A stretch of DNA of 64,000 nucleotides from an uncultured Candidatus Saccharibacteria bacterium (GCA_964401135.1 CAYNXC010000002.1:16457-80456), one strand, 5' to 3'; numbered from the stretch's first letter, positions 2,896 through 60,635 are shown. Numbers and translations are program-made. The notes: generated by a model from the sequence alone, not told the origin.

Positions 2896-5463
<2,568 letters not shown>

Positions 5464-32503: not shown

Positions 32504-32588
32504 GGAGGGGTCGCATAGAGGCCTAGTGCGCGCGCTTGGAAAGCGCGTAAGGGTTACACCTTCGAGGGTTCGAATCCCTCCCTCTCCG
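32504..32588 (+). tRNA. tRNA-Ser (GGA)
   Basis: GGAGGGGTCGCATAG... anticodon arm CGCGC-ttGGAaa-GCGCG, long variable arm, T arm GAGGGTTCGAATCCCTC, acceptor CCTCTCC. Confidence 0.85.
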
Positions 32589-32666
32589 CACTAAGAACCT
32601 GGTAGTTTTGTGACCCAAGTACCTAAGGTTGTAGGGCGACCCAGGTACCTAGTAATTACCTGGAAA

Positions 32667-33911
32667 ATGCCCGACGAATATCGCAATCATCATTACGTAC
32701 CACAGTGGTACCAAAAGAAGTTCATGCTACCGAACGAGCATGAGTTATTTCACTTGGATTTAAAACCCGAGACGTTCACCGATCCTCGCGGCGTGGTTCA
32801 TACCAAGAAGCCATTACGGCGACAAGGTAGTAAAAAGTGTTTCGTCCAAGAGGATCTTTATACGACGAAGATTCAAGGTATCGAAACAAAGGATATAGAG
32901 AAATATTTCTTCGGCGATATTGATACCAAAGGTCGTCCTGCTGTCGAATATTTCGAGGGGTTTGATTATCCCCTTAAACCCTGGGGTGAATCACTTCAGG
33001 ACATCATGCGTTACATGAGTACACAGAAGCTCAGGACTCCGAAAGGTCTATCATTTCTTAGCGAGAAAATTGGAAGTAAGGATAAGGACGCGATTCTACG
33101 CAATATGATCCGAGTGCGTAATGTTCATGCCGCTATTTGGATGGAATGCGTCTGGCTTATTGCAGACGCTTCACAGTCGGAGACTAAATTCATCATCTCA
33201 GACCATCCCGTTACTGTTTATAATCGTGAATGCGGTCCTCGATCCAGTTACTGTCGAGACTCAAATGACCCCGAGATATGGCTTCAAGGTACGCATACAA
33301 TTTTTCCACTTTCCATAGATAAGGTTCTCATTCTCACAAATTTATCCTGGGTGCGGAATCCATATCAATCCGCAACCAATCTACGACCGAATCCAAATCC
33401 ATACCGCAATGCGATATTCAAATTTACTGACGTTCAGGTTCGACGACAATTAAGTGAACAAGAGGTACGAGAAATCAATTTCATCATAAAAAGCCGAGCT
33501 TCCCGATATGTAGCCGCAGCCAAAGAAGAATGGCTTTACCCAGAAAGACATGTATCCAAATCAGATTGGAACAAATACGGTCATGGATATCTTTTGATGC
33601 CCGATCCTCGCGCTATTCATTGGGGAGGAACCATAATGTGGGGCGGTGGCCCAGGCGGTCCAGGTGCAATGGATGAATATGGAAGACTGCCCGGAGATCC
33701 TGATTTTGAAGCAGAGACAACCAAAGGTAAGGAGTACCAAACGCTCCCTTGGTTTCAGGGAGAATTTGCAAAGCTGTTCGGTCCTTATCGCCGAGGCCGT
33801 TGTATGCAACATATTGAAATTGAAAAGGAACGGGACGATGATGAATTTCACCAGTACCATCTCGGTCTTCAGAAAAAGAGCTATAAGGAACGACACGGCA
33901 AGAAGAAATAG
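32667..33911 (+). CDS. DUF4238 family protein (track ORF from GTG 32610)
   Basis: N-terminal HYVPQWYQKKF hallmark of DUF4238; ~415 aa with C-terminal extension. Confidence 0.6.
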   Translation: MPDEYRNHHYVPQWYQKKFMLPNEHELFHLDLKPETFTDPRGVVHTKKPLRRQGSKKCFVQEDLYTTKIQGIETKDIEKYFFGDIDTKGRPAVEYFEGFDYPLKPWGESLQDIMRYMSTQKLRTPKGLSFLSEKIGSKDKDAILRNMIRVRNVHAAIWMECVWLIADASQSETKFIISDHPVTVYNRECGPRSSYCRDSNDPEIWLQGTHTIFPLSIDKVLILTNLSWVRNPYQSATNLRPNPNPYRNAIFKFTDVQVRRQLSEQEVREINFIIKSRASRYVAAAKEEWLYPERHVSKSDWNKYGHGYLLMPDPRAIHWGGTIMWGGGPGGPGAMDEYGRLPGDPDFEAETTKGKEYQTLPWFQGEFAKLFGPYRRGRCMQHIEIEKERDDDEFHQYHLGLQKKSYKERHGKKK

Positions 33912-33914
33912 TTT

Positions 33915-35225
33915 TTAGTTGGAGTCCTCTGTAAGCAGAGTAATCTTCTTATCGTTCAGCACCAATCTGCTTCTTAGATGACCCATCAGTTCACGCTTCT
34001 CAAGCGGTGTACCCTCGCGGAGTACGTATTTTGCATATTCCTTTGTCGCAATATCGTCTTCATCGATCTGCATCTTGGGCTTGCCTTTGACCGCAAGTCT
34101 CTGCAATCTATTGAATCGCTTAATTTCTTCTTCGAGCTTCATCCGCATGCCAAGCTCGTTCATGGTGAGCTTGTCGATAATCTTGAATAGTTCCTCGACG
34201 AGTTCTTCCTCGCGGATATATTTGTTCTTGCAGTTCCTGTCTCTCGCTTTCGAGCAAGAGTAGTAGACGTACTTTGCATTCGTGCCATCTTTGAGCAGTT
34301 TGTATTTCTCCTGCGCCGTGATGCCCGATCCGCACATGCCACAGGTAAATAATTTGGTGAAGGCAAACTCTCTGTTCTCGCGCACAACTTTGTCGCGCTT
34401 CAATTGCTCCTGCACTTTCTTGAATAATTCCTCGCTGATTAGCGGCTCATGTGTTCCTTGATACCAGTTGCCGCTGTTCTTTGGATACTCGAATGGTCCG
34501 TAATAAATGGGCATCTGGAGCATGCGATATACACCAGAGAGTGTGAGTGGCTTGTTACCTCGCGTATAGAAGTTAAGCTCGAAACGGAGCCAGTTGTACA
34601 CTTTTCTACCGCTCCACAAATCGTATGCCACTTTTTCAAACATCTGCTTCACGATCGGTGCACGTTGCGGATCAATAACGATACGGCATTTCTTTTCTAT
34701 CAATTTCTGGTTGAGATATCCGAGCGGCGCCATGCCCGGCCACAACCCCATCTCCACTCTCGTTCTCAAACCTCGCTTCACGTTGATGCCCCGGTTGTCG
34801 TTCTCGAGCTTCGCCTGCGATCCAAGGATCATGAGGAGGAATTTTTCATTCGGATTATTAGTAAACTTTTGTCCGTAGGTGCGTATTTCCTTGAGCTTTC
34901 CAACGTCCATAAGATCGATCACTTTGCCGAGGTCGCCTGCGTTACGGCTGATGCGATCCGGCGCCCATGTGAGGATACCGTTGTATTTGTCATCCCTAAT
35001 TTCTTCGATGATCTCGTTAAATACAGGGCGCTGGCCAGTCTCCTTGGCGGAGTGAGATTCTCGCTTCATTGTCACAACTTCCAAATTTTCTCGCTCTGCT
35101 AGCTGGAGCATCTCCTTGATCTGGGAATCGATAGAAAGCGCCTGTCGTTCCTCCGCTTCGCTCGACTTGCGGGCATACAGGCAATATCTGATTGGTTTCT
35201 GTTCCTTTACGGTTGCGTTTTCCAT
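33915..35225 (-). CDS. Large serine recombinase (resolvase/invertase catalytic domain + recombinase domain + zinc ribbon)
   Basis: Catalytic Ser context YARKSSEAEE...SIDSQ, recombinase domain, CGMCGSGITAQEK...YYSCSKARDRNC zinc ribbon. Confidence 0.85.
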   Translation of the reverse strand: MENATVKEQKPIRYCLYARKSSEAEERQALSIDSQIKEMLQLAERENLEVVTMKRESHSAKETGQRPVFNEIIEEIRDDKYNGILTWAPDRISRNAGDLGKVIDLMDVGKLKEIRTYGQKFTNNPNEKFLLMILGSQAKLENDNRGINVKRGLRTRVEMGLWPGMAPLGYLNQKLIEKKCRIVIDPQRAPIVKQMFEKVAYDLWSGRKVYNWLRFELNFYTRGNKPLTLSGVYRMLQMPIYYGPFEYPKNSGNWYQGTHEPLISEELFKKVQEQLKRDKVVRENREFAFTKLFTCGMCGSGITAQEKYKLLKDGTNAKYVYYSCSKARDRNCKNKYIREEELVEELFKIIDKLTMNELGMRMKLEEEIKRFNRLQRLAVKGKPKMQIDEDDIATKEYAKYVLREGTPLEKRELMGHLRSRLVLNDKKITLLTEDSN

Positions 35226-35349
35226 GCATACACGAACATACCGGATACGGGTACGAAGTCTAGCCGCATACGAAACACAGAGCAGAAGCGGGAGGAAGTC
35301 AACTACACAAAAATCCCGAGGGAAGCTAAGGTCTTTTAGGGGGTGAGAA

Positions 35350-35562
35350 TTAAAAACTAATGAGATTGTTCACTTTAAGCCCTAGTGCTTTGGCGATCTT
35401 CTCCATGTTGGTGAGTGTAATGTTTTTCTCGGCACGTTCAATCATACCGATGTATGTCCTGTGGACTTTAGCCAACTGCCCTAAGCGCTCTTGAGAAATA
35501 TCGCGTTTCAGTCGTTCTTCTCGGACTCTTTTGCCAAATTGTATGAGAATAGTCTTGTTCAT
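35350..35562 (-). CDS. XRE-family HTH transcriptional regulator (Cro/CI-like)
   Basis: 70 aa, HTH_3 pattern LSQERLGQLAKVHRTYIGMIERAE. Confidence 0.8.
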   Translation of the reverse strand: MNKTILIQFGKRVREERLKRDISQERLGQLAKVHRTYIGMIERAEKNITLTNMEKIAKALGLKVNNLISF

Positions 35563-35661
35563 CTACACCGTTAAGTGTAGGAATTTGCTAACTTTGGTTC
35601 TATATACTATAGTTAGCATATATTCTTGAGAATTTTCATTGCAAAATTCTCGGGGGGGGGG
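35563..35661. promoter_or_regulatory. Divergent promoter/operator region with three inverted repeats and a G10 homopolymer
   Basis: ctacac-cgttaa-gtgtag; tgctaact-N17-agttagca; gagaatttt-cattgc-aaaattctc; then GGGGGGGGGG. Confidence 0.4.
35652..35661. repeat. Poly-G homopolymeric tract (10 G)
   Basis: ctcGGGGGGGGGGtaaaattgag ~20 nt upstream of ATG 35682. Confidence 0.85.
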
Positions 35662-36514
35662 TAAAATTGAGAACAATATTCATGAATAAAATCTTTAAAA
35701 GACTACTCGTATTTGCGGTACTATTTGCTCTTACTTCTTCGAATGTTTTTGCTGCAACTAAAACCTGGGACTTTTCCACTTCGTCGGACTACACTTTTGA
35801 TACTACTAAAATTGAAGTCATAGGAGGACAAGCACAATTGAAAGCTACAACAACTCCTGCTTGGTATGACACCAGTTGGAAATATAGAAAGAAAATATCA
35901 ATTGACCATACAAAAATATCGTCAGATTTAACAGATTTTCCTGTTCTCGTTAATCAAACTTCTGACTCAGACTTGGCAGCCAAAGCGTTAACGTCAGGTA
36001 ACGATATATTTTTCACTTCATCTGATGGAGTTACAAAACTAAGCCACGAAATAGAGACATATGCATCAACAACAGGAGCTTTAGCTGCATGGATTAAAGT
36101 TCCTACAGTATCCTCTTCTGTAGATACTGATGTTTATATGTATTATGGTAATGCTGCAGCTTCTGCTCAAGCGAATGCAAATGGAGTATGGGATAGTAAT
36201 TCAATTGTTGTTCAACATCTTAATGCTACTACTAGCCCAGCACTAGACTCAACATCTAATGCGAATAGTGGAGTTCAGTCTGGAGGAGTTACTTTCAGTG
36301 CAACAGGCAAGATAGGTAATGCTGTGAGCATGGACGGTGTTAATGACAAACTATCCTTAACAAGTAATAGTGGCTTAAACGCAACAGGCACCCTAAGTAT
36401 TAGTGCATGGGTAAATAGAACTGCATCGGGCAAGATGAGGGTAGTTGCAAAAACAGTTACTACTGGAACAACTGACAACCCATATGATTTTGGTATAAAT
36501 ACGGATAATACACT

Positions 36515-36522
36515 TTATTTAA
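36515..36522. repeat. 8-bp target site duplication TTATTTAA (left copy)
   Basis: Identical octamer abuts the outer ends of both terminal inverted repeats (right copy 39496..39503). Confidence 0.75.
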
Positions 36523-36548
36523 GGGAACTATATACAATGTTACCCTAA
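36523..36548. repeat. Left terminal inverted repeat of IS
   Basis: gggaactatatacaatgttaccctaa. Confidence 0.75.
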
Positions 36549-36551
36549 AAA

Positions 36552-37085
36552 TTAATTAGATTTTGGTTTGTCTAAATCTTCCAAAGAAAAGCCCAGGTCA
36601 GGAAAAATAAGATTTCTTAGATAAATACTCCCTGCAAAAAGAACGGTATTAATATCAACTCCAGACTGGAAAGCCCCTTGTTTGAGTGATTCTACAACAT
36701 CAGGACAATGTATTGGTAACTCCATCATTATCTCGGATATTACTTTCTCTGCATCATAAGGATTAGTCGTATTTTTACTTTGAACTAATTTTAGAAGTTC
36801 GTCTTTTTTTGCGTCAATAATTTCTTTAATTCCGCTATCATCTAAGATAGCTTGCCCTCTTGAGTTTAATTGTCGTGGAGAATTAGCAGGTGCAATTTTG
36901 TCTTTCCATAGAATATCCAGTTTAGGGAACATATCTGCCACTTTGGGTTTAATGTCTTTAATATCTTCCAGCATAAAATTTGTTCTTTCATCAATCCTCG
37001 CAATCAATTCACGAGTATTACCCAACAGGATAGCAGAAATCCAGTTACCTGCTTTTTTGGCTAAATTAAGGGCTTGTTGTTCCAT
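36552..37085 (-). CDS. Hypothetical protein (177 aa), passenger gene of the IS element, reading outward through the left IR
   Basis: ORF inside IS boundaries; no recognisable family. Confidence 0.5.
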   Translation of the reverse strand: MEQQALNLAKKAGNWISAILLGNTRELIARIDERTNFMLEDIKDIKPKVADMFPKLDILWKDKIAPANSPRQLNSRGQAILDDSGIKEIIDAKKDELLKLVQSKNTTNPYDAEKVISEIMMELPIHCPDVVESLKQGAFQSGVDINTVLFAGSIYLRNLIFPDLGFSLEDLDKPKSN

Positions 37086-37197
37086 AGGATTATTACATTA
37101 CTAGTATATCAAAACGGCTGTTGCAAGTTAATACTAGTCAAAAAGTTACCCCCAATTATTACTTGACAACCCTATTGTGATCGTATAAGCTATAGGT

Positions 37198-38115
37198 ATG
37201 GATAGCCGATACAAAACCTTGGTAGAGTTCCTCGCCCACTTTAAGGATGAGGAAACCTGTCAAAAATACTTTGAGCAAATCCGCTTCTCCCAAGGCGAGT
37301 ATTGCCCTCATTGTAACCACAGTAAAATCAACCGCTTTTCAGACGGCAAACGCTTTCGCTGTGCTAAGTGCAAAAAGGACTTCACTATTAAGACCAAGAC
37401 CGTCTTTGGCGAAAGCAAAATCTCAATGCAGAAATGGTTTGTCGCAATTTACCTTTTGTCCGTCAATAAGAAAGGCATTAGCTCTATTAACCTAGCCGAG
37501 CAAGTGGGCGTTACTCAAAAGACCGCGTGGTTTATGGATCATCGTATTCGTAAAGCCTTGAAACAAAATAGCGGTCAGTTGTTTGGCACAGTAGAAATAG
37601 ACGAAACCTATATCGGCGGCAAGGAAAAGAACAAGCACGCCCACAAGCGAACCAAGCGCACCCAAGGCCGAAACACTTTGACCAAAACCCCTGTAATGGG
37701 AATGATACAGCGAGGCGGTGCAATGAAAGCCAAAGTGATAGATAATGTAAAGATGCGAACCTTGGAAAGTCTGATTATTGAAAATGTAAAAATTGGGACA
37801 CAGCTCTACACAGACGAGTTTTTGTCTTACTCCAAAATCGGCAGTCTCTTTGCTCACGAGGCCGTGTCACACGGCAAAGGCCAGTATGTAAAAGGTGATA
37901 GCCACTCCAACACCGCCGAGAGTTTTTGGGCATTGTTTAAGCGTGGCTACTACGGCACTTACCACAACATGAGTAAGAAGCATTTGCAGAAGTATGTGGA
38001 CGAGTTCGTGTATCGCTTTAACAACCGAGCCGTGGAGCTAGCCGATGTATTCACTGATGTCGTGGCGAATGTAGCGGGTAGCGAGAAGCTGGCTTATAAG
38101 ACTCTTACCGCTTAA
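37198..38115 (+). CDS. IS1595-family (ISXO2-like) DDE transposase with N-terminal zinc finger
   Basis: CPHCNHSKINRFSDGKRFRCAKCKKDFT zinc ribbon; ISXO2-like transposase core. Confidence 0.85.
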   Translation: MDSRYKTLVEFLAHFKDEETCQKYFEQIRFSQGEYCPHCNHSKINRFSDGKRFRCAKCKKDFTIKTKTVFGESKISMQKWFVAIYLLSVNKKGISSINLAEQVGVTQKTAWFMDHRIRKALKQNSGQLFGTVEIDETYIGGKEKNKHAHKRTKRTQGRNTLTKTPVMGMIQRGGAMKAKVIDNVKMRTLESLIIENVKIGTQLYTDEFLSYSKIGSLFAHEAVSHGKGQYVKGDSHSNTAESFWALFKRGYYGTYHNMSKKHLQKYVDEFVYRFNNRAVELADVFTDVVANVAGSEKLAYKTLTA

Positions 38116-38116
38116 T

Positions 38117-39025
38117 ATGTCCCCACGAGAACGCAAATATCACGAGGGGTTAGGGGTAGACTTTAATCAAGCTCTTGTCTCTATTGCTGGTGAGAACCGA
38201 ACCGAGCGGAGTATCGCCGCCCGACCATTTCTAAAGTGGGTCGGTGGCAAGCGGTCAATCCTGCCAGAGCTTCTAAAGCGGTTGCCGACCAAGTATGACG
38301 CTTACCATGAGCTGTTTCTAGGCGGTGGTGCGTTGTACTTCGCCGTCCAGCCAGAGGAGGCTTATCTGTCTGATGTAAACTTCCACCTCATCCTTACTTT
38401 CAAGGCGGTGCGAGATGATCTGGACAGCTTAATCCGTCAGTTAAAAATCCACGAACGATTACACAACAAGGAATACTATCTCAAAGCTCGCCAGAAGCTC
38501 TTTAAGGAAAAGGACACCACCAAACTGGCGGCTCTCTTTATCTACCTCAATAAAACTTGCTTCAATGGTCTTTACCGAGTAAACAAGGGGGGTGGCTTCA
38601 ATGTCCCGATGGGCGACTACAAAGACCCAAACATTTTAGACGAGGAAAATCTGCGTAATGCTTCAAAGGTTTTAGCGACCGCCGAGATTAAACAGCACGG
38701 CTTTGAGCATACCAAAATCTACAAAGGCGACTTCTACTATCTTGACCCGCCCTATCACGAAACCTATAGCGGTTATGATGGCTCTGGCTTTGGCGATGAA
38801 CACCACCGCAAGCTCGCCGAGTTCTGCAAACAGATAGACCAAAAGGGCAGTTACTTTATGCTCTCCAACAGCGACACGCCATTTGTCAGAGAGTTATATA
38901 AGGGCTATACTATTGAGCAAGTAGAGGCTTCACGAAATGTCTCTTGCAAAGCCCACCAGCGAGGCAAAGAAAATGAGCTTATCATCCGAAACTACACCAA
39001 TAACGGGGGGCGGACAAGCCAATAA
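38117..39025 (+). CDS. DNA adenine methyltransferase, D12 class (Dam/DpnM-like)
   Basis: Motif I FLGGGALYF, catalytic DPPY (YYLDPPYHETYSGYDGSG); start 1 nt after transposase stop. Confidence 0.85.
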   Translation: MSPRERKYHEGLGVDFNQALVSIAGENRTERSIAARPFLKWVGGKRSILPELLKRLPTKYDAYHELFLGGGALYFAVQPEEAYLSDVNFHLILTFKAVRDDLDSLIRQLKIHERLHNKEYYLKARQKLFKEKDTTKLAALFIYLNKTCFNGLYRVNKGGGFNVPMGDYKDPNILDEENLRNASKVLATAEIKQHGFEHTKIYKGDFYYLDPPYHETYSGYDGSGFGDEHHRKLAEFCKQIDQKGSYFMLSNSDTPFVRELYKGYTIEQVEASRNVSCKAHQRGKENELIIRNYTNNGGRTSQ

Positions 39026-39473
39026 AACGGGCAGTGTTTTAGAGCTATTTATCAAGCGACTTTTAGAGGACAACGGCTACACCGCCTTTCCTAACCACAA
39101 AGCCCAGCTATTCGCCAATCGTAAAACTGTCGGTGGTAAGCAATACTCTACCCAAGTTCCTTGTGGTACGAGTATCTACGAAACCCAGCGTAAATGCGAC
39201 TTCTTGATCATGAACCAAGACAAGTTCCCCGATGGACTGGTGATTGAGTGCAAGTGGCAACAGTCTACTGGCTCGGTAGACGAGAAGTACCCTTTTACCT
39301 TGTTTAACATCATCAAGATCGGCGTGCCAACCATCATTCTGCTGGACGGCAACGGCTACAAAAAGGCGGCGATGAAGTGGTTAAAAGACCAAGTGAACCC
39401 ACAGAGAGCCTTAATCGGCGTTTACAATATGGCCGAGTTTCAAGCTATGGTAAATAAGGGGTTTTTAGGTTAG
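38973..39473 (+). CDS. Small PD-(D/E)xK nuclease, putative restriction endonuclease partner of the MTase (track ORF from 38937; start uncertain)
   Basis: CDFLIM...LVIECKWQ (D...E-x-K) core; overlaps MTase 3' end in another frame; stop codon lies within the IS right IR. Confidence 0.5.
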   Translation: MSLSSETTPITGGGQANKTGSVLELFIKRLLEDNGYTAFPNHKAQLFANRKTVGGKQYSTQVPCGTSIYETQRKCDFLIMNQDKFPDGLVIECKWQQSTGSVDEKYPFTLFNIIKIGVPTIILLDGNGYKKAAMKWLKDQVNPQRALIGVYNMAEFQAMVNKGFLG

Positions 39474-39495
39474 GGTAACTTTGTATATAATTCCC
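39470..39495. repeat. Right terminal inverted repeat of IS
   Basis: ttagggtaactttgtatataattccc. Confidence 0.75.
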
Positions 39496-39503
39496 TTATT
39501 TAA
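39496..39503. repeat. 8-bp target site duplication TTATTTAA (right copy)
   Basis: Matches 36515..36522. Confidence 0.75.
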
Positions 39504-42190
39504 ATCGTGCAGATTCAAGTGTTGTAAATTTTCTATCAAGTTCAACAACTGTACCGACAAATTCATGGACAAAAATTGAAGTAATTGATGACACTGTCGT
39601 TAAAAGTGCTTTCAACAGCGTCTCAAAATTAGTCACCCTAGCGACATCTACAAGAGCGTGGCAGGGGGTAGCAAGTGATGGGACTTATATCTATGCAATT
39701 GGACAAAATGCTATTTCGCAGTTTGATATGCAAGGTAATTTTATAAAAGAAAAGAATAATGTATACAGTGGTTTTACTGGTGGCAACATCCTAGGTAATG
39801 GAACAGTAATTAATGGAAAGTTATATGTCGGGGCATATAATGCGAATACTTTAGGAGCGTCAACAAATCCTAATTACACTCCGTTATCAGATCTTCAATC
39901 AAAAATTGCTGTCTTTAGCCTATCTGATTTTTCATTAATTGAAGATTTTAACCTTGGTACTCAAGTAAAAATTGCTGAGGGTGTTGATTATCACAATGGT
40001 TACTTTTGGGTAGTTGATGGATGGTTTGATACTTTCGTCGTAAAAAAATACGATACTAGTTTTAATTTAGTCTCTACGTATAGCTTGCCTGTAGCAAATG
40101 CTTTCGCTGGAGAATTAACATACCAAAATATTAATTGGTATGGGAATGACATTTTTGTTAATTGGCATGGCTCAAATTCTTTTGGACAAACCTATGCTTA
40201 TGGGTTGGATCATTATTCTTTTGACGGAACAAATTTTAATTTTGTAGAACGATTAAGACCAGTAACATATGGTGCAGGTCAAGGTATTGCAATTGTCGGA
40301 AATACGTTTTATTGGGCAGATAGACCTGGAAATGCGATCTACAAATCAACATATGTTGGAGCTGGAAATGGTGATGATGGTATTGATCCATCACATACAA
40401 AATTTTTCATAAATGGAGTTGGTGAGCTTGCTCATGTAAGTACTGGCTCTCTCACTGTGCTTTCACCTACAAGTAATACCAGTCCAACGGTTATTGGAAC
40501 TAGGGGCGATTCAAGTAGTTTTTATAAAGGTGTCATAGATGAAGTTCGAATTTCAAATGCGGCAAGATCAGATGCATGGGTCTCGGCAAGTTACGCCAAT
40601 GAAAACTCACCAAGTACATTCTATTCGATGGGTTCGGAACAAAAAAATTATGCAGCTACTAACCCGACTGTTAATCCCACATCATTAAATGCGCAAGCCT
40701 TCTCATCCCTGTCAGGCTTTTCAGCAGTTGAAGTAAGTAATGGAGGAAATATAAAGTATCAAGTTTCAAATGATGGAGGAACCACATGGTATTGGTACAA
40801 CTCTGGCTGGAATACAACAACTTCAGGATACTCTGAGACAAATGCATCTTCAACTATAAATACAAATATCGCTTCTTTACCTGTAGGAAGTGGATCATAC
40901 TTATTTAAAGCATATTTAAATTCTGATGGAACGCAGCAACCTCAGATAGACAGTGTGGTGCTCACATACTCTGCGCCACTTGATATTACAGCTCCTATTA
41001 TATCTGCGATAGCGTCTTCTACATCCCAAACTTCAGCAACTATTACCTGGACGACCGATGAATCAGCCACATCAACGGTAAATTATGGTCTTAACACTTC
41101 ATACGGTACAGCGTCATCCTCATCATCTCTCGTTACCTCTCATTCGATATCCTTGTCAGGATTAACCGCATCAACCGCATACCATTTCCAAGTAGCATCA
41201 GCTGACGCTTCTGGAAACGTTGCAACTTCTTCAGACTATACATTCACCACAACAGCAGTGCCTGACACAACGCCTCCGGTCATTTCATCAATTTCTTCCG
41301 GTTCACTTTCAACTTCAGGAACAACTATAACTTGGACCACTGATGAAGCTGCGGATTCCCAAGTTAACTACGGCACAAGTGCCTCATATGGATCACAGAC
41401 GACCCTTGATTCAACACTAGTGACGAGTCACTCCATTGTAATTTCAGGTCTTTCTGCAGGAACGACGTATCACTACCAAGTAGTGTCAAAAGATGCTTCT
41501 GGAAACACAGCTACATCTTCTGACCAAACCTTTACCACTTCAGCACAGCCTTCGAGCGGGGGTTCATCAAGCGGATCATATTCCGGAGGAGGCTCAATCC
41601 TTATCCAACCTTCTGTGCCGGGCTGTCCTACAGGATTCAATTGTGTAGTAAATCCAACCCCTACCATTTTACCAAATACTTTTACTCGTGATCTCACCAT
41701 AAAAAGTACTGGTAGTGATGTGAAGGTATTGCAGCAGTTCCTGATCGCTAAAGGCTTTCTTGCGAGCGGCAATGACACGGGATACTTTGGTCCTCTGACG
41801 CAAGCTGCTCTCGCGCAATACCAGCTTTCGATGGGTATTAAACCATCGGTTGGATATTTCGGCTCACTTACTCGTGCAGTCATTGCTGTCTCGCAGAACA
41901 TATCACCTACTACTCCATCAATATCAACAAATCCGACGGTACTTCCAAGCACGTTTACTCGAGATCTGTATTTCGGCATGAGTGGAGACGATGTAAAACT
42001 CTTGCAAAAGTTCCTTAATGACCATCAATTTATAGTCAGCCAAACTGGCGCAGGATCTCCAGGACTTGAATCAAATTATTTCGGCCCAGCCACCCGAGAC
42101 GCCCTTATTCGTTTTCAGACTTACAATCACATAGTCCCTGCAGTAGGGTATTTTGGTTCGCTTACACGCCAATTCGTAAATGGTCAGTAG
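39504..42190 (+). CDS. 3' portion of the IS-disrupted surface protein gene: LamG C-terminal part, two Fn3 domains, Ser/Gly linker, two C-terminal peptidoglycan-binding (PG_binding_1-like) domains; first in-frame ATG at 39728
   Basis: Frame stays open from 39491 upstream of the ATG (…LNRADSSVVNFLSSSTTVPTNSWTKIEV…); GVIDEVRISNAARSDAWV LamG end; TWTTDE...TYHYQV Fn3 x2; GYFGPLTQAALAQYQ PGBD x2. Confidence 0.7.
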
Positions 42191-42233
42191 GAGTGGATAA
42201 CCCGACTACACAAATCTAAAGAAGGAAGCTAAG

Positions 42234-42596
42234 TTACTTACGTTCGTCCTCAGGCCATGGCTTTGGGCCGAACATCTCGTCGATCTTCTTGATCTCGTCT
42301 TCTGTAAGTTCGCGCTTCGGAGGCCGTTCCGGTACTGGGTCTCCTTTGTACTTCGGCGGCTTTCCGTCCATATGCTCCCAGATGAGCTTGATCATCCGAT
42401 GATCGCCGTCCAGTGCCATCCTTATGATTTTCTCAACCAACGCATCTGCAATAGTCTTGTCTTTATCACTCACAATCCTTTTACTGAGTATCTCTTGGAA
42501 TTGGCTCGTTAGTGTTTTGCCCGGAGGCCTTCCGTTCAAGTTTCTTCTCGGGTCGAATCCGCTTTGGAATGGCTTGAGGTTATTGATGTTGCCCAT
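42234..42596 (-). CDS. Small basic protein with N-terminal MGNINNLKPFQSGFDPRRNLNGRPPG motif (DUF5681/phage-like); paralog A
   Basis: 121 aa from internal ATG of track ORF 42234..42689; shares motif and architecture with the upstream paralog. Confidence 0.5.
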   Translation of the reverse strand: MGNINNLKPFQSGFDPRRNLNGRPPGKTLTSQFQEILSKRIVSDKDKTIADALVEKIIRMALDGDHRMIKLIWEHMDGKPPKYKGDPVPERPPKRELTEDEIKKIDEMFGPKPWPEDERK

Positions 42597-42945
42597 GGTC
42601 GTTTCGTTTAAAATACTTCTCAAAATCCGCCTGTTCTTCGGGCGTGTACTCGACCTTTTCTTGCGGTACAAATGGGGTAGGTACCACAAACTCGTCAGGC
42701 ACCTTGCCGTCCACTTGGTCGATGACCATACTCATGGCTTTCAGGTTGCCCTTGGCCGCCTTCCACACAAGCTGCATTACGATAGCCTTATCCTTCCGTG
42801 CCATCTTGCCGTTGAAGTAGACTTTCTCCTTCAATATTTCCATAATCACGGTTCTCACATTCCGAGAACCCTTCGGTCTACCCTTGGTATTCCTTCTTGG
42901 ATCGTACCCTGATTGAAAGGGCTTCAATGTTTTTATATTTCCCAT
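42580..42945 (-). CDS. Small basic protein with N-terminal MGNIKTLKPFQSGYDPRRNTKGRPKG motif; paralog B
   Basis: 121 aa from internal ATG of track ORF 42580..43098; 3' end overlaps the start of paralog A. Confidence 0.5.
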   Translation of the reverse strand: MGNIKTLKPFQSGYDPRRNTKGRPKGSRNVRTVIMEILKEKVYFNGKMARKDKAIVMQLVWKAAKGNLKAMSMVIDQVDGKVPDEFVVPTPFVPQEKVEYTPEEQADFEKYFKRNDHGQHQ

Positions 42946-43252
42946 ATCTGGTATTTTACCGGCTTTTTTGTTTGTAAAGGGGTGCATTACTTTCTCGCAG
43001 TTATTTTCACAGATAAAAGGGTGAAAAACGGCTTCTTTTAAGCCTTCGATTTTTCCCGTAATTTCACAGTATTTACGGGTATTTTGACCCCGACCCACAA
43101 ACCTCCTTCGGCTTCCCGAAAAAGTGCTAGAATACCCTTACGACACCTAATCATATGGGTACCGTACCCATAGCCCCCGCAAATTGAAACTTCCTGTTCC
43201 GAAAGCCGAATTGACCGTTGCATGAATAGTATTATCGTCCTAATATATATAC

Positions 43253-43651
43253 ATGAAAGGATACACAGCAAATATTGAGAAGGATACGGTAGCAAACAGT
43301 AGCTTCCGTAAGGTGCTCTATACGGGCAAGCACAGCCAGTTGGTACTGATGAGCATCCCGCCCAAGGGAGAGATTGGTCTGGAGACGCATACAGACAACG
43401 ACCAGTTTTTCCGTTTTGAGAAAGGGGTGGGGAAGTGCCTCATTGATGGTAACGAGTACGCGGTAGGGGACGGTGTCGCGGTGGTGGTCCCTGCAGGAGC
43501 AGAGCACAATGTTATTAACACATCAGAGATCGATGATCTCAAGCTTTACACTATTTACTCGCCATCACATCATAAGGACGGGATCATCCGTGCGACGCGA
43601 GAGGAGGCAGAGGCCAATGAGGCAGAGTTTGACGGCGTGACGAGTGAGTAG
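43253..43651 (+). CDS. Cupin domain protein
   Basis: Two-motif cupin pattern (GLETHTDNDQFFRFEKG ... VVVPAGAEHNVIN). Confidence 0.6.
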   Translation: MKGYTANIEKDTVANSSFRKVLYTGKHSQLVLMSIPPKGEIGLETHTDNDQFFRFEKGVGKCLIDGNEYAVGDGVAVVVPAGAEHNVINTSEIDDLKLYTIYSPSHHKDGIIRATREEAEANEAEFDGVTSE

Positions 43652-50067: not shown

Positions 50068-52104
50068 ATGAAAAAAATTGCATTGCTTACCGTTGCAGTG
50101 CTTGCACTTGGTGCTGTCGTAGTGCCCGCTTCAGCGAGCGCGTTGACCGCAAATGAAATCTTGCAAGCGTTGTCAGCGGATCCAGCCCTGCTCTCGCAAC
50201 TACAGGCACTCCTCGGTGGTACAGCCACAACTGGCGGTACATCATCAGCAGGAAGCCTTGCTGCAGTTCAGGCACTTACTAAAGATTTGACTATCGGTTC
50301 AAAGGGTGCGGATGTAACCGCTCTCCAGACCTGGCTCGTAGAGGAAGGATACATGGTAATGCCGGTAGGCGTTCCTATGGGATACTTTGGGACTTTGACA
50401 CAGAAGGCCCTCGCACAGTGGCAAGCAGAGAATGCAGTCACTCCTGCAGCAGGATACTTTGGTCCTAAGACCCGAGGCGTTATCGCTACACTCTCAAGCA
50501 CAGTCACTCCTGGCGGCACCTTGCCAGCAGGTTGTACTTCAACAGCTGGTTACAGTTCCACAACTGGTGCAAAGTGTGATGGTTCCACAACTGGTTCAAC
50601 CACTGGTGGAACAATCTCAACACCCGGTGTTGAAGGTACGCTTTCTGCAACACAGTCAACATCCGGAATCAGTTCAACTATCTATGAAGGTGATGATCAG
50701 GTAGCTATCCTCGGTGTTAAACTTGAGGCAGACAGCTCTGACATCATGGTTCAGAGAGTGAAGATTGACCTTGGTACAACCACGAAGATCTACAACAAGA
50801 TCTACTCAAAGTTGTATGTCACTGAAGGAGGTAACCTCCTTGCAGAGGCAGCACTCAACTCATCCACAGTGGTGAAAGAGAGCGGCCGCTACTACATTAC
50901 GATCTCAGGCTTCAACCTCCTTGTTCCTAAGGATGGTTCCAAGACGGTCGTAATCAAGGCGGATGTGTACTCAAGCATTGATTCAACAGATCGTAGCGCT
51001 GGTGACATTACCCTCTCATGGGGTGTTCGCCTAGCTTCAAATGGTTTCCGTGGTGTTGATGGTGCTGGTATTGACCAGTACGCAGGTACAACTTCAATCG
51101 GTAAGTCGATTACTATATCGGCAAGCCTCGTTGAATCAGCAACACTTGACCTCGCAGATAACTCAAGCTCTCCTTCAGCAGCCGATGTAGTTGCTGCAGA
51201 TGGTTCAGCAAACAATGAACTTGATAAGTTGACCCTCCTCACTTTCAACCTTACTGCAAAGAAGGATGATGTGACAGTGACCGACCTTGCAATTGATATT
51301 GACAAGGGAGGCACCGGTGGAGCAACAGCTTCAACAACAGTGTACCTCTATGAGGGTGACACTGAGCTCGAAAACGCAACTGTTGATAGCAGTGCTGCAA
51401 ACGGCAGCTATGTAGTCTTCTCAAGCGACGAGCTCTTCACAGTTTCAAAGGATGCGACCAAGACCTTGACTGTTAAGGTTGATGTCCGAAACGCTAATGG
51501 AACAGTGTCGACGCTGTCAGCGACTGCTTCTTCATCTGGTATCACTGCTGAGAACTCACAAGGCGACACAGTGTCAGTCAGTGGTTCAGCAACTGGCGAG
51601 TCACAGTATGTACGTAATGTTGGTCCAGTGTTCACATTGGTATCAAAGAGTGTAGAGCGCTCAGTTTCAACTGACAATCAAATCTCTACAACCACATCAC
51701 AAGCAACCTTCACCGTTAAGGTAAAGGCAGTAGGTGGCAGTATCACCTTTGGTTCTGTTGCTTCTACCGCTCCGATGTTTGGTAGCTCAACTCCGTACTT
51801 CGTGACCTATGTCAACGGTGCAGCGCAGACGCTCCTGGTCGCTTCATCCACAGACTTCTCAATCCCTTCATCGGGAGTGACCACGTCTGGATTGGATAAC
51901 AGCTTCACCTTGGCAGAAAACAATGAAGTAACCATCCCAGTATCATTCACCTTTGTCAGTAAGACTGCGGCTGGCGCAAATGCGTTTACAGGTTCAAACT
52001 CTGTCGCGACTGCGCTTGAGCGCATCCGCTGGGCAGGTGCACAGACCACGACCTTTATGGCTGGCGACACTGATTGGAGAGCTTCAAGCGTAACAATGCC
52101 GTAA
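50068..52104 (+). CDS. Secreted surface protein with N-terminal peptidoglycan-binding domain and long Thr/Ser/Gly-rich beta-rich region
   Basis: Signal peptide; LTIGSKGADVTALQTWLVEEGY...GYFGTLTQKALAQWQ PGBD-like. Confidence 0.55.
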   Translation: MKKIALLTVAVLALGAVVVPASASALTANEILQALSADPALLSQLQALLGGTATTGGTSSAGSLAAVQALTKDLTIGSKGADVTALQTWLVEEGYMVMPVGVPMGYFGTLTQKALAQWQAENAVTPAAGYFGPKTRGVIATLSSTVTPGGTLPAGCTSTAGYSSTTGAKCDGSTTGSTTGGTISTPGVEGTLSATQSTSGISSTIYEGDDQVAILGVKLEADSSDIMVQRVKIDLGTTTKIYNKIYSKLYVTEGGNLLAEAALNSSTVVKESGRYYITISGFNLLVPKDGSKTVVIKADVYSSIDSTDRSAGDITLSWGVRLASNGFRGVDGAGIDQYAGTTSIGKSITISASLVESATLDLADNSSSPSAADVVAADGSANNELDKLTLLTFNLTAKKDDVTVTDLAIDIDKGGTGGATASTTVYLYEGDTELENATVDSSAANGSYVVFSSDELFTVSKDATKTLTVKVDVRNANGTVSTLSATASSSGITAENSQGDTVSVSGSATGESQYVRNVGPVFTLVSKSVERSVSTDNQISTTTSQATFTVKVKAVGGSITFGSVASTAPMFGSSTPYFVTYVNGAAQTLLVASSTDFSIPSSGVTTSGLDNSFTLAENNEVTIPVSFTFVSKTAAGANAFTGSNSVATALERIRWAGAQTTTFMAGDTDWRASSVTMP

Positions 52105-52199
52105 ACAGCTACTTGTGATAGCTTCAAAAACACCCCTTCGGGGGTGTTTTTGTTTTGTATTTTTTTGTGTAGTAATGGAGGATGTATTAAAATGAATAT

Positions 52200-53189
52200 A
52201 TGGCAGATGCTCCCCCTCCGAGTCCGCAAAATATGGACGGGTTTTGGCTCATTGCAATTCTCTCTCTCGTCTTTTTTGTGTGGGTGTCACAAGGTGGACC
52301 AACGCAATTTGAAGCAGGGAAGAACGCGACCAGCACTTGGCGTAGAGCAACGACAAATACTTCTTCACGCACAACAAAAACACCATCAAATACGAGTAGC
52401 ACAAAAGGCAGTACTACGAGTATAAAAAATTCCCCATACGCAGGGAAAGTAAGGATTACGAGTAAGGGGAGCGCCGCATCAGCAATTCAAGTCAACCAAG
52501 AGTATATTACCCTTCAAAATACAACACGAGACGAGTATATTGCTATCTCGGGATGGAAGCTCGTTAACGGTCGTGACTCACGCTACTACTCGACCAGTAG
52601 CTCTACACAACTTATCTATTACAAACCAGACTCGGTGGTGATCCCCTCTGGTACGCGCTATTTGACAGGGAAGACAAAAAACACCCTCTCCCTCATTGTG
52701 CTTGCACCAAAAGATCGCGCCCATATTGTTACGGGGAAGATGCCCAACCAATCCCCCTACGCAATCCCCTCAAGTTTTAAGTTGAACAAATGTGTCGGGT
52801 ACATTGAGGCGCTCTCTCTGTATAAATTCACTCCAGCAGTGAGTCTGCAGTGCCCTGCCCCTTCAAAAGAGACAGATATCAATAATCTAGAACAATCGTG
52901 TTACGACTATGTCCGGAGACTCTCACGCTGTCACACTCCAGAATTCAGGGTGGTGGAGGGGATTGATTATGTTGACTCAACCACAGGCCTGTCAGAATAT
53001 TGCAAGCGCTATGTGAGGGAGCGATTTTCGTACGATGGCTGTCTGACGCGATATGCAAGTGATGAAGATTTCTTGAGCCCGATATGGTATGTGTACCTTA
53101 ACTATTCACACCAACTCTGGGATGTGAATCGCGATCGGATTTTGCTCTATGATGCACAGGGTAAGCTGATTGATGAGTTAAAGTACTAA
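52200..53189 (+). CDS. Membrane-anchored protein with lamin-tail-domain (LTD)-like region and Cys-rich C-terminal domain
   Basis: TM near N-terminus; GKVRITSKGS...EYITLQNTTRDEYIAISGWKL resembles LTD; 8 Cys in C-terminal half. Confidence 0.45.
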   Translation: MADAPPPSPQNMDGFWLIAILSLVFFVWVSQGGPTQFEAGKNATSTWRRATTNTSSRTTKTPSNTSSTKGSTTSIKNSPYAGKVRITSKGSAASAIQVNQEYITLQNTTRDEYIAISGWKLVNGRDSRYYSTSSSTQLIYYKPDSVVIPSGTRYLTGKTKNTLSLIVLAPKDRAHIVTGKMPNQSPYAIPSSFKLNKCVGYIEALSLYKFTPAVSLQCPAPSKETDINNLEQSCYDYVRRLSRCHTPEFRVVEGIDYVDSTTGLSEYCKRYVRERFSYDGCLTRYASDEDFLSPIWYVYLNYSHQLWDVNRDRILLYDAQGKLIDELKY

Positions 53190-53193
53190 GGCT

Positions 53194-54489
53194 ATGAAAT
53201 ATATCTCGCTCATACTCTCCGGACTGGCACTTACAAGCGGTACAGCGGTCTTTGCAGCGACAAGTGCGATTACAACAATTGAGGTAACATCAGACGCGCA
53301 AACAGTTGCACCGAATGCTGTATCAGGAAAGATCACCGTCTCTCTCAAGAATGCAAGCGGGGAGTCAGAAAAGATAGATGAGTCATCAAATAAACTTTCT
53401 CTCATCAGCAGTTCAGCTACTGGTGAATTTTCTTCCAATGCGGATAATTGGGAAAAAATAAACGAGCTTACGGTGAATAAAAATACCGCAAGTCGCGGTT
53501 TTTATTATAAAGATGGTACTGAAGGACTTCATATACTTTCCTTTGTGCTTACTAGTGGAGAGACGGGAAAGAACTGGTCTACTACGCATAAGATTACTAT
53601 TGGGAGCGGGGGAACGGCGAGCTCAACAGGGGATGCGAGCACGACAACAGCAACTACTGCCAGTACCACCGCTACTAACAATGTAAACTCTTCTTCTGCT
53701 GGTGGATCTAGTCTCTCCTCCCACGAGAGTTCAGCAAGAGTTACAAATATACTCCTCGCGCCTCCCTTCTCCATATCAGCTGGTCGTGAGCGTTTGGGAA
53801 ATACCGGTGCACCACTCCTCTTTCATGCAGTGAGTAACATTAAAGAAATTGGAGGAGTGAACTACCGTTGGTCCTTTGGAGATGGGAGTGGTGGCACTGG
53901 AGCACTGATTTCTCATCAGTATCAATTACCCGGTCTCTATACAGTCGTGCTCATGGGTACGCGCGGTACTGAAGAAGCAGTATCTCGGACCCGTGTTCGG
54001 ATTATTACTCCTGATCTACATATCATACGCACCATGCGATCGGCTGATGGCGCACTCTCTCTTGTGGTAAAGAATCGTAGTGACTATGAGTGCAACATTG
54101 GACGATTTGCCGTACGGGCAGGATCTAGTACTGAGACATTTGCTCCCGACACCATTATCCCGGCACAGAGCGAAGTCTCTCTTGTTACGGGCGTTCCTTA
54201 CCAGAGCGGAGTACCGGTATCTCTCGTTGCACCGAATAGAGCCATACTCACGACGGAGACCAGAACAGACTCATCGTTACAGAGACTCGCAATAGCACTG
54301 AGGAGTCTCCCCCGTCAAAACATCTCTCCTCACAATCCCTCTCTCCCTCCTCAGATTCTTGTTGGCAGTACTACTTCTGTTTTTCTTCGTGCATCAGGAG
54401 AGAGTCAGCGGGCCGGGCTTATAGTGGTGCCAAAGAGTAAAGAGCGTGGATTCTTAGAGAAGTTCTGGAAACGATTGTGGGATAGGTGA
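53194..54489 (+). CDS. Secreted protein with PKD domain
   Basis: Signal peptide; NYRWSFGDGSGGTGALISHQYQLPGLYTVVLMG PKD signature. Confidence 0.6.
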   Translation: MKYISLILSGLALTSGTAVFAATSAITTIEVTSDAQTVAPNAVSGKITVSLKNASGESEKIDESSNKLSLISSSATGEFSSNADNWEKINELTVNKNTASRGFYYKDGTEGLHILSFVLTSGETGKNWSTTHKITIGSGGTASSTGDASTTTATTASTTATNNVNSSSAGGSSLSSHESSARVTNILLAPPFSISAGRERLGNTGAPLLFHAVSNIKEIGGVNYRWSFGDGSGGTGALISHQYQLPGLYTVVLMGTRGTEEAVSRTRVRIITPDLHIIRTMRSADGALSLVVKNRSDYECNIGRFAVRAGSSTETFAPDTIIPAQSEVSLVTGVPYQSGVPVSLVAPNRAILTTETRTDSSLQRLAIALRSLPRQNISPHNPSLPPQILVGSTTSVFLRASGESQRAGLIVVPKSKERGFLEKFWKRLWDR

Positions 54490-57275: not shown

Positions 57276-57485
57276 GGCCTCAATGTCTATAGGGTATCAA
57301 CTAATGTTCAAACGGCGATGAGCTAGAGGGATATGTCTGGTGCTCGAGAGCCGCTTGAACGAAGCGGATTTTTTTACCCCAGCGACAGAAGACTTTCTTT
57401 GAAAACTGAATAGCAGGTAACATCTGTAAAGAGAATTAGAATTGTAAGAGAAAGATGATGTAAAGATTTCCTAATAGGAAATGGC

Positions 57486-60474
<2,989 letters not shown>

Positions 60475-60529
60475 TAGGAAACCTCTACATCATTTATCGT
60501 TCTCTTCACTCTGATCTTCTGTATTTTGT

Positions 60530-60635
60530 TCTGGTGGTTTGGTGGAGGGGTCACACCCGGCTCCATTCCGAACCCGGCAGTTAAGCCCTCTAGCGCCGAT
60601 GATACTCGTAAGGGGAAAGTAGGTGACCGCCAGAA
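60530..60635 (+). rRNA. rrf: 5S ribosomal RNA
   Basis: TCTGGTGGT...CCGAACCCGGCAGTTAAGCCCTCTAGCGCCGATG...GACCGCCAGA with helix I pairing. Confidence 0.75.

Follow-up and report, generated by a model that had tools for sequence, protein, structure and literature searches.

Insertion sequences (IS) are classical agents of knock-out in dispensable genes for surface structures, as with IS1301 in meningococcal siaA and IS256 in staphylococcal ica, where each insertion can be undone by precise excision and serves as a phase switch. Here we describe such an event in a 64,000-nucleotide stretch of a metagenome-assembled genome (MAG) deposited as an uncultured Candidatus Saccharibacteria bacterium (GCA_964401135.1, CAYNXC010000002.1:16457-80456; hereafter the window, whose first letter is position 1). 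We hold with high confidence that one transposition of a 2,973-bp IS1595-family transporter IS interrupted the gene of a 1,175-aa surface protein, with loss of its function. The case is like the classical ones in that the IS lies within a dispensable surface-structure gene and IS-bearing and IS-free alleles occur in the population, but it differs from them in that the element carries a potentially addictive restriction-modification pair. While the gene disruption itself is textbook-like, it is unusually well documented for an uncultivated bacterium of the candidate phyla radiation (CPR), with natural before-and-after alleles at two nested levels: an island at a tRNA-Ser gene, and an IS inside a cargo gene of that island.

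The kind of element is not new, as both transporter ISs and transposon-like restriction-modification units are known (PMC5704250, PMC2853133). The transporter IS concept is that of Siguier et al. 2009, as quoted in PMC11891212, and the IS1595-family members tISCpe8 and MTnSag1 have inverted repeats of ~25 bp, 8-bp duplications, and passenger genes inside the repeats (PMC5704250). The element described here is like these two in its IS1595-type DDE transposase, inverted repeats, 8-bp duplication, and enclosed passengers. Its passengers, however, are a Dam-like methylase, a PD-(D/E)XK nuclease, and a variable open reading frame (ORF) rather than lincosamide resistance and oriT, and most of its hosts belong to uncultivated lineages (Patescibacteria, Acidobacteria, Verrucomicrobia, and others). 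Transposon-like restriction-modification units with imperfect inverted repeats, an 8-bp duplication, and an empty-site comparison were described by Furuta, Abe and Kobayashi in 2010; one of them had a transposase-like gene (COG3677), while most were without an evident intact transposase, and the authors did not determine what moved them (PMC2853133). Restriction-modification genes inside imperfect inverted repeats, the 8-bp duplication, and the empty site all recur at our locus. Conversely, the unit here contains what profile matches indicate to be a full-length IS1595 transposase, which has diverged in parallel with the restriction-modification genes in at least 18 elements.

The IS ends in 23-bp inverted repeats that are identical at 21 of 23 positions (left, GGGAACTATATACAATGTTACCC; right, as the reverse complement of 39473-39495, GGGAATTATATACAAAGTTACCC). 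A degenerate search for these repeats across the window returned two sites, both of them the IS ends, against none in 100 shuffles. Just outside the repeats stand the two copies of an 8-bp direct repeat, TTATTTAA; the left junction reads ...ACACTTTATTTAA followed by GGGAACTATATACAATGTTACCC..., and the right junction ...GGGTAACTTTGTATATAATTCCC followed by TTATTTAAATCGTG.... Removal of positions 36523-39503 in silico, that is, of the IS and one repeat copy, leaves a single ORF with no internal stop, in which ...NTLYL runs directly into NRADSSVV.... This ORF has 3,543 nt (1,180 aa) from TTG 35667 or 3,528 nt (1,175 aa) from ATG 35682. Counting from TTG 35667, as is done for all protein residues below, the IS follows aa 285 and thus sits in codon 286. 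The reading frame of the second gene fragment opens at 39491, and the first possible start in it (ATG, GTG, or TTG) is at 39728. An earlier note on this DNA had claimed that an IS precisely splits a gene of ~1170 aa, that its excision joins the two fragments in frame, and that the frame upstream of the ATG at 39728 is open to ~39491 without a start codon, all of which is borne out. Its word "giant" overstates a protein of 1,175 aa, which is large; its plain term IS does not convey that the element, here placed in the IS1595 family, is a transporter IS that carries a restriction-modification pair and another ORF.

The earlier note had also proposed a comparison with uninterrupted orthologs in related genomes, and such alleles exist among Logan metagenome contigs. 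The 90%-identity cluster of the 820-aa fragment encoded from ATG 39728 also contains, from Logan assemblies, the 288-aa left fragment and a 1,175-aa uninterrupted protein (P0122) that is encoded on contigs of three other sequencing runs. Base by base, two of these contigs (L002 from SRR27197509 and L003 from SRR27901409) are identical to the excised window gene at 3,528 of 3,528 nt, and each has a single TTATTTAA at the empty site; the third (L086 from SRR27197517) has the same uninterrupted 1,175-aa gene call, and its alignment crosses the empty site. The flanks of the intact-allele contigs are 99.7-99.98% identical to the window, and the neighbours of P0122 are the same in all contigs (DUF4238, serine recombinase, and helix-turn-helix (HTH) genes upstream; cupin, EF-P, sigma factor, and RecA genes downstream). 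The IS-bearing allele was likewise assembled a second time, on a Logan contig from SRR10580904 (L001) that is 100% identical to the window over 8,834 bp, both junctions included, and the exact transposase sequence is on record in one NCBI contig and one Logan contig only. Because there are zero substitutions in 3.5 kb between the interrupted and intact genes, the insertion is evolutionarily very recent. That the two ORFs might natively be separate genes is ruled out by the intact alleles. The features of the locus are collected in Table 1.

Table 1. Positions of the features discussed, in window coordinates.
Feature	Position	Strand	Remarks
tRNA-Ser(GGA)	32504-32589	+	ARAGORN and Rfam; the core CCGCA at its 3' end (32585-32589) is the left island junction
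Strain-variable integrated island	32590-43181		10,592 bp with the IS, ~7.6 kb without; core CCGCA again at 43177-43181
Large serine recombinase, presumed island integrase	33915-35225	-	Pfam Resolvase, Recombinase, and Zn_ribbon_recom; PHROG integrase, E=3.7e-65
Promoter-like match TTGCAA-17-TAAAAT	35639-35667	+	consensus match only; spacer holds the poly-G tract, 35652-35661
Surface gene fragment 1	35682-36522	+	matches the 5' portion of the intact L002 and L003 genes at every base
Signal peptide (by inspection)	35682-35753	+	in fragment 1
DUF2341	35997-36191	+	in fragment 1
LamG, start	from 36333	+	in fragment 1
Target-site duplication, left copy	36515-36522		8 bp, TTATTTAA; direct repeat just outside the IS
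IS1595-family transporter IS	36523-39495	+	2,973 bp, between 23-bp inverted repeats 36523-36545 and 39473-39495
orf177	36552-37085	-	passenger gene in the variable left slot of the element
IS1595-family DDE transposase, N-terminal zinc ribbon	37198-38115	+	profile matches
Dam-family (D12 class) N6-adenine DNA methyltransferase	38117-39025	+	profile and PDB matches
PD-(D/E)XK nuclease (PDDEXK_11), presumed restriction endonuclease	38937-39473	+	overlaps the methylase gene end; alternative start 38973 gives 166 aa
Target-site duplication, right copy	39496-39503		8 bp, TTATTTAA; direct repeat just outside the IS
Surface gene fragment 2	39504-42190	+	identical to the intact gene; annotated ATG 39728 is internal
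LamG, rest of N-terminal part	to 39577	+	in fragment 2
Five-bladed beta-propeller nested in LamG	39599-40378	+	AlphaFold2 and Foldseek; ~260-270 aa
LamG, C-terminal part	40385-40585	+	in fragment 2
Conserved module between LamG and Fn3	~40640-40987	+	in fragment 2
Fn3 domains	41012-41233 and 41288-41539	+	in fragment 2
PG_binding_1 domains	41708-41881 and 41981-42166	+	in fragment 2

With the IS removed, the protein matches the Pfam families DUF2341 (aa 111-175), Laminin_G_3 in two pieces (aa 223-310 over profile positions 1-84; aa 580-646 over positions 89-151), Fn3/Pur_ac_phosph_N twice (aa 789-862 and 881-964), and PG_binding_1 twice above the cut-off, the first match at aa 1021-1078. Its N-terminus, MNKIFKRLLVFAVLFALTSSNVFA followed by ATK, resembles a Sec signal peptide by inspection. 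The DUF2341, two Fn3 domains, and two peptidoglycan-binding domains that the earlier note had listed are thus all found, along with its signal peptide as a putative one, though the list was incomplete in omitting a beta-propeller nested in the LamG domain. Similarly, LamG does span the junction and continues over it in the profile alignment, as had been proposed, but it is not simply halved by the element, which interrupts its N-terminal part; natively, the propeller already divides the domain. Uninterrupted homologues align continuously over the junction (P0037 with 48% identity over 484 columns, P0033 with 37% over 839 columns), as in the pairing of NPYDFGINTDNTLYLNRADSS with NPYDFGVLNDH-LYLVRANGS. 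Between LamG and the first Fn3 domain we also identified a conserved module (~aa 665-780) with the motif GGxIKYQxSNDGGTTWYWYNSGW, of which SNDGGTTW is Asp-box-like; no family could be assigned to it.

The protein is like the DUF2341-LamG surface proteins of Patescibacteria, Actinomycetota, and archaea in its putative signal peptide, in the order of DUF2341 then Laminin_G_3, and in the LamG end ...DEVRISN.ARS..W.... It differs from them in the five-bladed propeller nested in LamG, which only a few relatives share (P0037, P0033), and in a predicted C-terminal anchor made of two PG_binding_1 domains. This architecture suggests a secreted binding or adhesion protein that would be tethered to the peptidoglycan of the wall.

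A single transposition placed the IS into codon 286 and, in doing so, duplicated the AT-rich 8-bp target TTATTTAA. The first fragment runs on into the IS for eight foreign codons (RELYTMLP) to a stop at 36548, and its product would be a secreted 288-aa stub with DUF2341, part of LamG, and the eight IS-encoded residues. The second fragment has no start before the internal ATG 39728 and no signal peptide, so that any product would stay in the cytoplasm, and the insertion would break the LamG sandwich. ATG 39728 itself falls within the first blade of the propeller, and no Shine-Dalgarno-like sequence precedes it. The consequence would be loss of function, and we take the annotated 820-aa ORF to be the 3' portion of a pseudogene.

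Several points weigh against this account or against parts of it. The IS-bearing allele is known from one sample only, as SRR10580904 and the MAG contig probably derive from the same reads, and the signal peptide was judged by eye only. Moreover, the nuclease gene ends 22 bp before the IS end formed by the right inverted repeat, and read-through from it could yield a cytoplasmic 820-aa product. For the cargo, homology predicts that the restriction-modification pair is active and specific for GATC, and the host shows no depletion of GATC (observed/expected 0.97), which fits a recent arrival but also an inactive nuclease.

The dependence on a single sample bears on the possibility that the junctions are an artefact of assembly or binning, in which IS reads of another organism were joined into this genome. 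Such an error would also be in keeping with the higher GC content of the transposase-methylase-nuclease part relative to the surface gene, and with the existence of close IS relatives in other phyla. We consider it scarcely credible, as the element lies between perfect 8-bp duplications of a sequence that is single in the empty-site alleles, just outside imperfect inverted repeats, which is the signature of DDE transposition; the MAG and Logan contigs agree base for base over both junctions, and relatives share the same architecture. Read-through bears instead on whether the insertion yields a functional, N-terminally truncated protein, namely the 820-aa ORF from ATG 39728 transcribed from an outward-reading IS operon. 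The nuclease gene points to fragment 2, that ORF is intact, and no strong terminator-like site lies between the two, although the scan, whose hits did not exceed those in shuffles, says little about transcription out of the IS. Such read-through is possible, yet it would not restore export, and a wall-binding protein that is not exported cannot get to the peptidoglycan. With a start inside the first propeller blade, neither a signal peptide nor a Shine-Dalgarno-like sequence, and a LamG sandwich that would miss its N-terminal strands, a functional truncation is very unlikely. Where the earlier note left the choice between an inactivated and an N-terminally truncated protein, we thus favour inactivation as much the likelier, since the 820-aa ORF is without a signal peptide or an obvious ribosome-binding site.

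The insert between LamG profile positions 84 and 89 is native and independent of the IS. A canonical DUF2341-LamG protein without it (P0035) aligns on either side, with query 6-322 on subject 8-318 and query 630-672 on subject 358-400. The insert has no Pfam family match. Its AlphaFold2 model (pLDDT 87.5, pTM 0.89) is all-beta with 20 strands, and in Foldseek it superposes best on the five-bladed glutaminyl cyclases 3nol, 3mbr, and 2faw (TM 0.62-0.69), while the best E-values are to NHL propellers (E=3e-10, at 10-17% identity). Twelve homologues of the insert were found, mostly stand-alone proteins of 240-400 aa (e.g. in Paenibacillus and metagenomes) whose hydrophobic N-termini are signal-peptide-like by inspection. 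In P0041 and P0072, a related module lies between DUF2341 and LamG, that is, before LamG and not inside it. A larger AlphaFold2 model (aa 166-664, from a 14-row alignment) is confident only in the propeller, with pLDDT 30-65 in the LamG part, and the three-dimensional continuity of LamG therefore rests on the profile and homologue evidence. These data define an unannotated family of five-bladed propellers that occurs both as stand-alone, putatively secreted proteins and nested inside the LamG domain of surface proteins.

Among the genes carried by the element, the transposase matches PF12762 over its whole length (1-153/153, E=9e-44), PF12760 (E=6e-11), and NF033547 (199.6 bits against a cut-off of 75), which places it in the IS1595 family as a predicted full-length enzyme. 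The methylase matches PF02086 (E=6e-60) and TIGR00571 (286 bits against a cut-off of 114.85), its translation has a visible DPPY motif, and its best PDB match is M.DpnII (2dpm, E=3e-57), so it is probably GATC-specific. The nuclease matches PF20472 (E=3e-38, 131 bits against a cut-off of 23.7) and has no sequence match in the PDB; its similarity to the DpnII Pfam family is weak (E=5e-4, 19.9 bits, below the cut-off of 23). Compared with DpnII/MboI-type GATC systems, then, the likeness lies in a Dam-family methylase closest to M.DpnII and in the weak resemblance of the nuclease to the DpnII endonuclease, whereas the nuclease here has only 166-178 aa, belongs to PF20472 (PDDEXK_11), and falls below the curated cut-off for DpnII. 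That methylase and nuclease form a cognate restriction-modification pair is supported by their adjoining in the same way, without the IS, on the Alicyclobacillus plasmid NZ_CP044435.1. The remaining passenger, orf177, has no match in Pfam, NCBIfam, PADLOC, or PHROGs, and its PDB matches are at chance level only (E≥0.28). A homologue with 60% identity occupies the same slot in L007, and a weaker, partial match of 37% lies elsewhere in L044.

Relatives of the element were gathered by scanning one genome per GTDB species with the transposase, which gave 80 loci and a best transposase match of 86% identity; the clade was described from loci L004-L046, L096, and L097. The order of transposase, methylase, and nuclease is kept in 18 loci, where the transposases are ~60-86% identical to ours and the cargo diverges in step with them (methylase 61-83%, nuclease 57-88%). 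The cargo is absent from a few loci within that range and from all loci below ~59%. In the 18 relatives the whole module lies between copies of a consensus inverted repeat, GGGAACTATATACAAAGTTACCC, and perfect 8-bp duplications flank the unit in 14 of these relatives. These relatives occur in Paceibacterota, Saccharibacteria, Moraniibacteriota, Bdellovibrionales, Gammaproteobacteria, Desulfobaccales, Planctomycetes, Vulcanimicrobiota, Acidobacteria, and Verrucomicrobia. The module is also present on two IMG/VR contigs, while among annotated plasmids the closest transposases reach no more than 43% identity. The distance from the left inverted repeat to the transposase gene is either ~105-140 bp or 440-1,080 bp, with unrelated ORFs in the space where it is large.

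Because the relatives keep the gene order inside the same inverted repeats with perfect 8-bp duplications, they show, as far as sequence can, that the restriction-modification pair transposes with the IS as one unit. By the same comparison, the element classifies as a transporter IS in which the restriction-modification cargo is fixed and one slot varies. This is many-fold sequence evidence that a DDE insertion sequence can carry a complete restriction-modification pair between its inverted repeats, and it would provide a concrete vehicle for transposon-like restriction-modification units that were earlier without an assigned transposase (PMC2853133). More generally, we tentatively hypothesize, with more doubt than conviction, a cross-phylum, as yet uncatalogued clade of self-transposing restriction-modification units (IS1595 transposase, Dam-like methylase, PDDEXK_11 nuclease, 23-bp repeats, and a swappable left slot) in which the pair serves as an addiction module of the IS. 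If this were true, each insertion would bring along a defence system that is hard to lose, and the CPR population would have given up an adhesin that was phase-variable and carried on an island, in exchange for a defence system that is mobile.

Some further observations were made on these elements and on restriction sites. The left-slot ORFs that we looked at (L004, L005, L013, L015-L017, L019, L022, L043, L046, and L007) are unrelated, though a small Cys-rich repeat motif, SQAG..GRHKCxxCAYxxGF, is common to the slots of L013, L019, and L022. Another locus, L095, has the same inverted repeats without the restriction-modification cargo. Across the whole window, ACGT occurs 25 times where 249 are expected (a ratio of 0.10), a strong under-representation, and TCGA (0.37) and CTAG (0.41) are also low; this suggests that restriction has acted at ACGT over a long time, independently of the recently acquired element.

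The surface gene is itself carried by a strain-variable segment. Island genes include those for a DUF4238 protein, a large serine recombinase, and an HTH regulator, as well as the surface gene and DUF5681 ORFs. In five contigs from other samples (L087, L088, L090, L092, and L093) the island is missing, and the 3' end of tRNA-Ser(GGA) (...CTCTCCGCA) is joined straight to window position 43182 onward (AATTGAAACTTCC...), points that lie 10.6 kb apart in the window. In L089 and L091, a different sequence stands to the left of the same core. The serine recombinase is the likely agent at the tRNA-Ser site, judging from its domains. Since many strains do without the tRNA-Ser island that carries it, the surface gene is dispensable; it is also accessory, as the earlier note had guessed.

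Upstream of the surface gene, 21 nt before its start codon, a poly-G tract differs in length among alleles: the window and L001 have G10, L002 and L086 have G11, and L003 has G9. In the left part of the island this tract is the sole difference of L084 (from the same run as L002) and L086 from the window, with one more in L003, at 34644. A scan of 35200-43300 found no enrichment over shuffles for promoters (19 against 16.5±3.9) or terminators (10 against 6.5±2.7). The tract looks like a candidate phase-variation (contingency) tract, with homopolymer calling errors possible and the promoter a consensus match.

These features raise the question of whether the knock-out was adaptive, whereby selection favoured losing a phase-variable surface protein that might serve as a phage receptor or in host attachment, and the addictive cargo keeps the gene OFF. 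Such a scenario would draw on the dispensability of the gene and its place on an island, on the variable poly-G (G9/G10/G11) in a promoter-like spacer, on the restriction-modification pair of the IS, and on the IS-bearing allele being the only one assembled in its sample. We nevertheless regard it as unlikely: the poly-G difference could be one of homopolymer calling, the promoter is a consensus match not enriched over shuffles, and a preference for AT-rich targets alone accounts for the landing site. The 14 perfect duplications of the relatives are 92% A+T, from which we infer that the element prefers AT-rich targets, and AT-rich 8-mers are 2.1-2.7 times denser in the surface gene than in the core flanks. 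A bias of this sort would favour an AT-rich accessory gene over the core genome, and transposition into such a gene, with loss of its function, is the reading we retain.

The GC content is 0.377 in fragment 1 and 0.409 in fragment 2, 0.43-0.44 in the island, and 0.48-0.49 in the core flanks; that of the element is 0.439 overall, composed of 0.348 in orf177 and 0.455-0.482 in the transposase, methylase, and nuclease genes. Both gene fragments are therefore AT-richer than the core flanks, as the earlier note had it, but AT-richer than the element only with respect to its transposase-methylase-nuclease part. The RecA encoded downstream is 91% identical to that of Candidatus Vogelbacteria, with the next named matches in Paceibacterota/Parcubacteria, and by this marker the host is a CPR/Patescibacteria bacterium related to Candidatus Vogelbacteria.

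Elsewhere in the window, positions 42234-43098 hold two overlapping minus-strand ORFs (151 and 172 aa), both DUF5681, where the gene calls of sister contigs are only 61-135 aa; they may represent one phage-related gene, duplicated or frameshifted, at the island's right end. The 23S and 5S rRNA genes at 57477-60635 have protein-coding ORFs directly upstream, and no 16S gene is present in the window, which is consistent with unlinked rRNA genes. Finally, comparison of 50636-53659 with L084 (16136-19154) gave no alignment at ~50.6-52.1 kb and 83% identity at 52.1-53.7 kb. This divergent stretch covers genes for proteins with PG_binding, LTD, and PKD domains and constitutes a second hypervariable surface-protein region.

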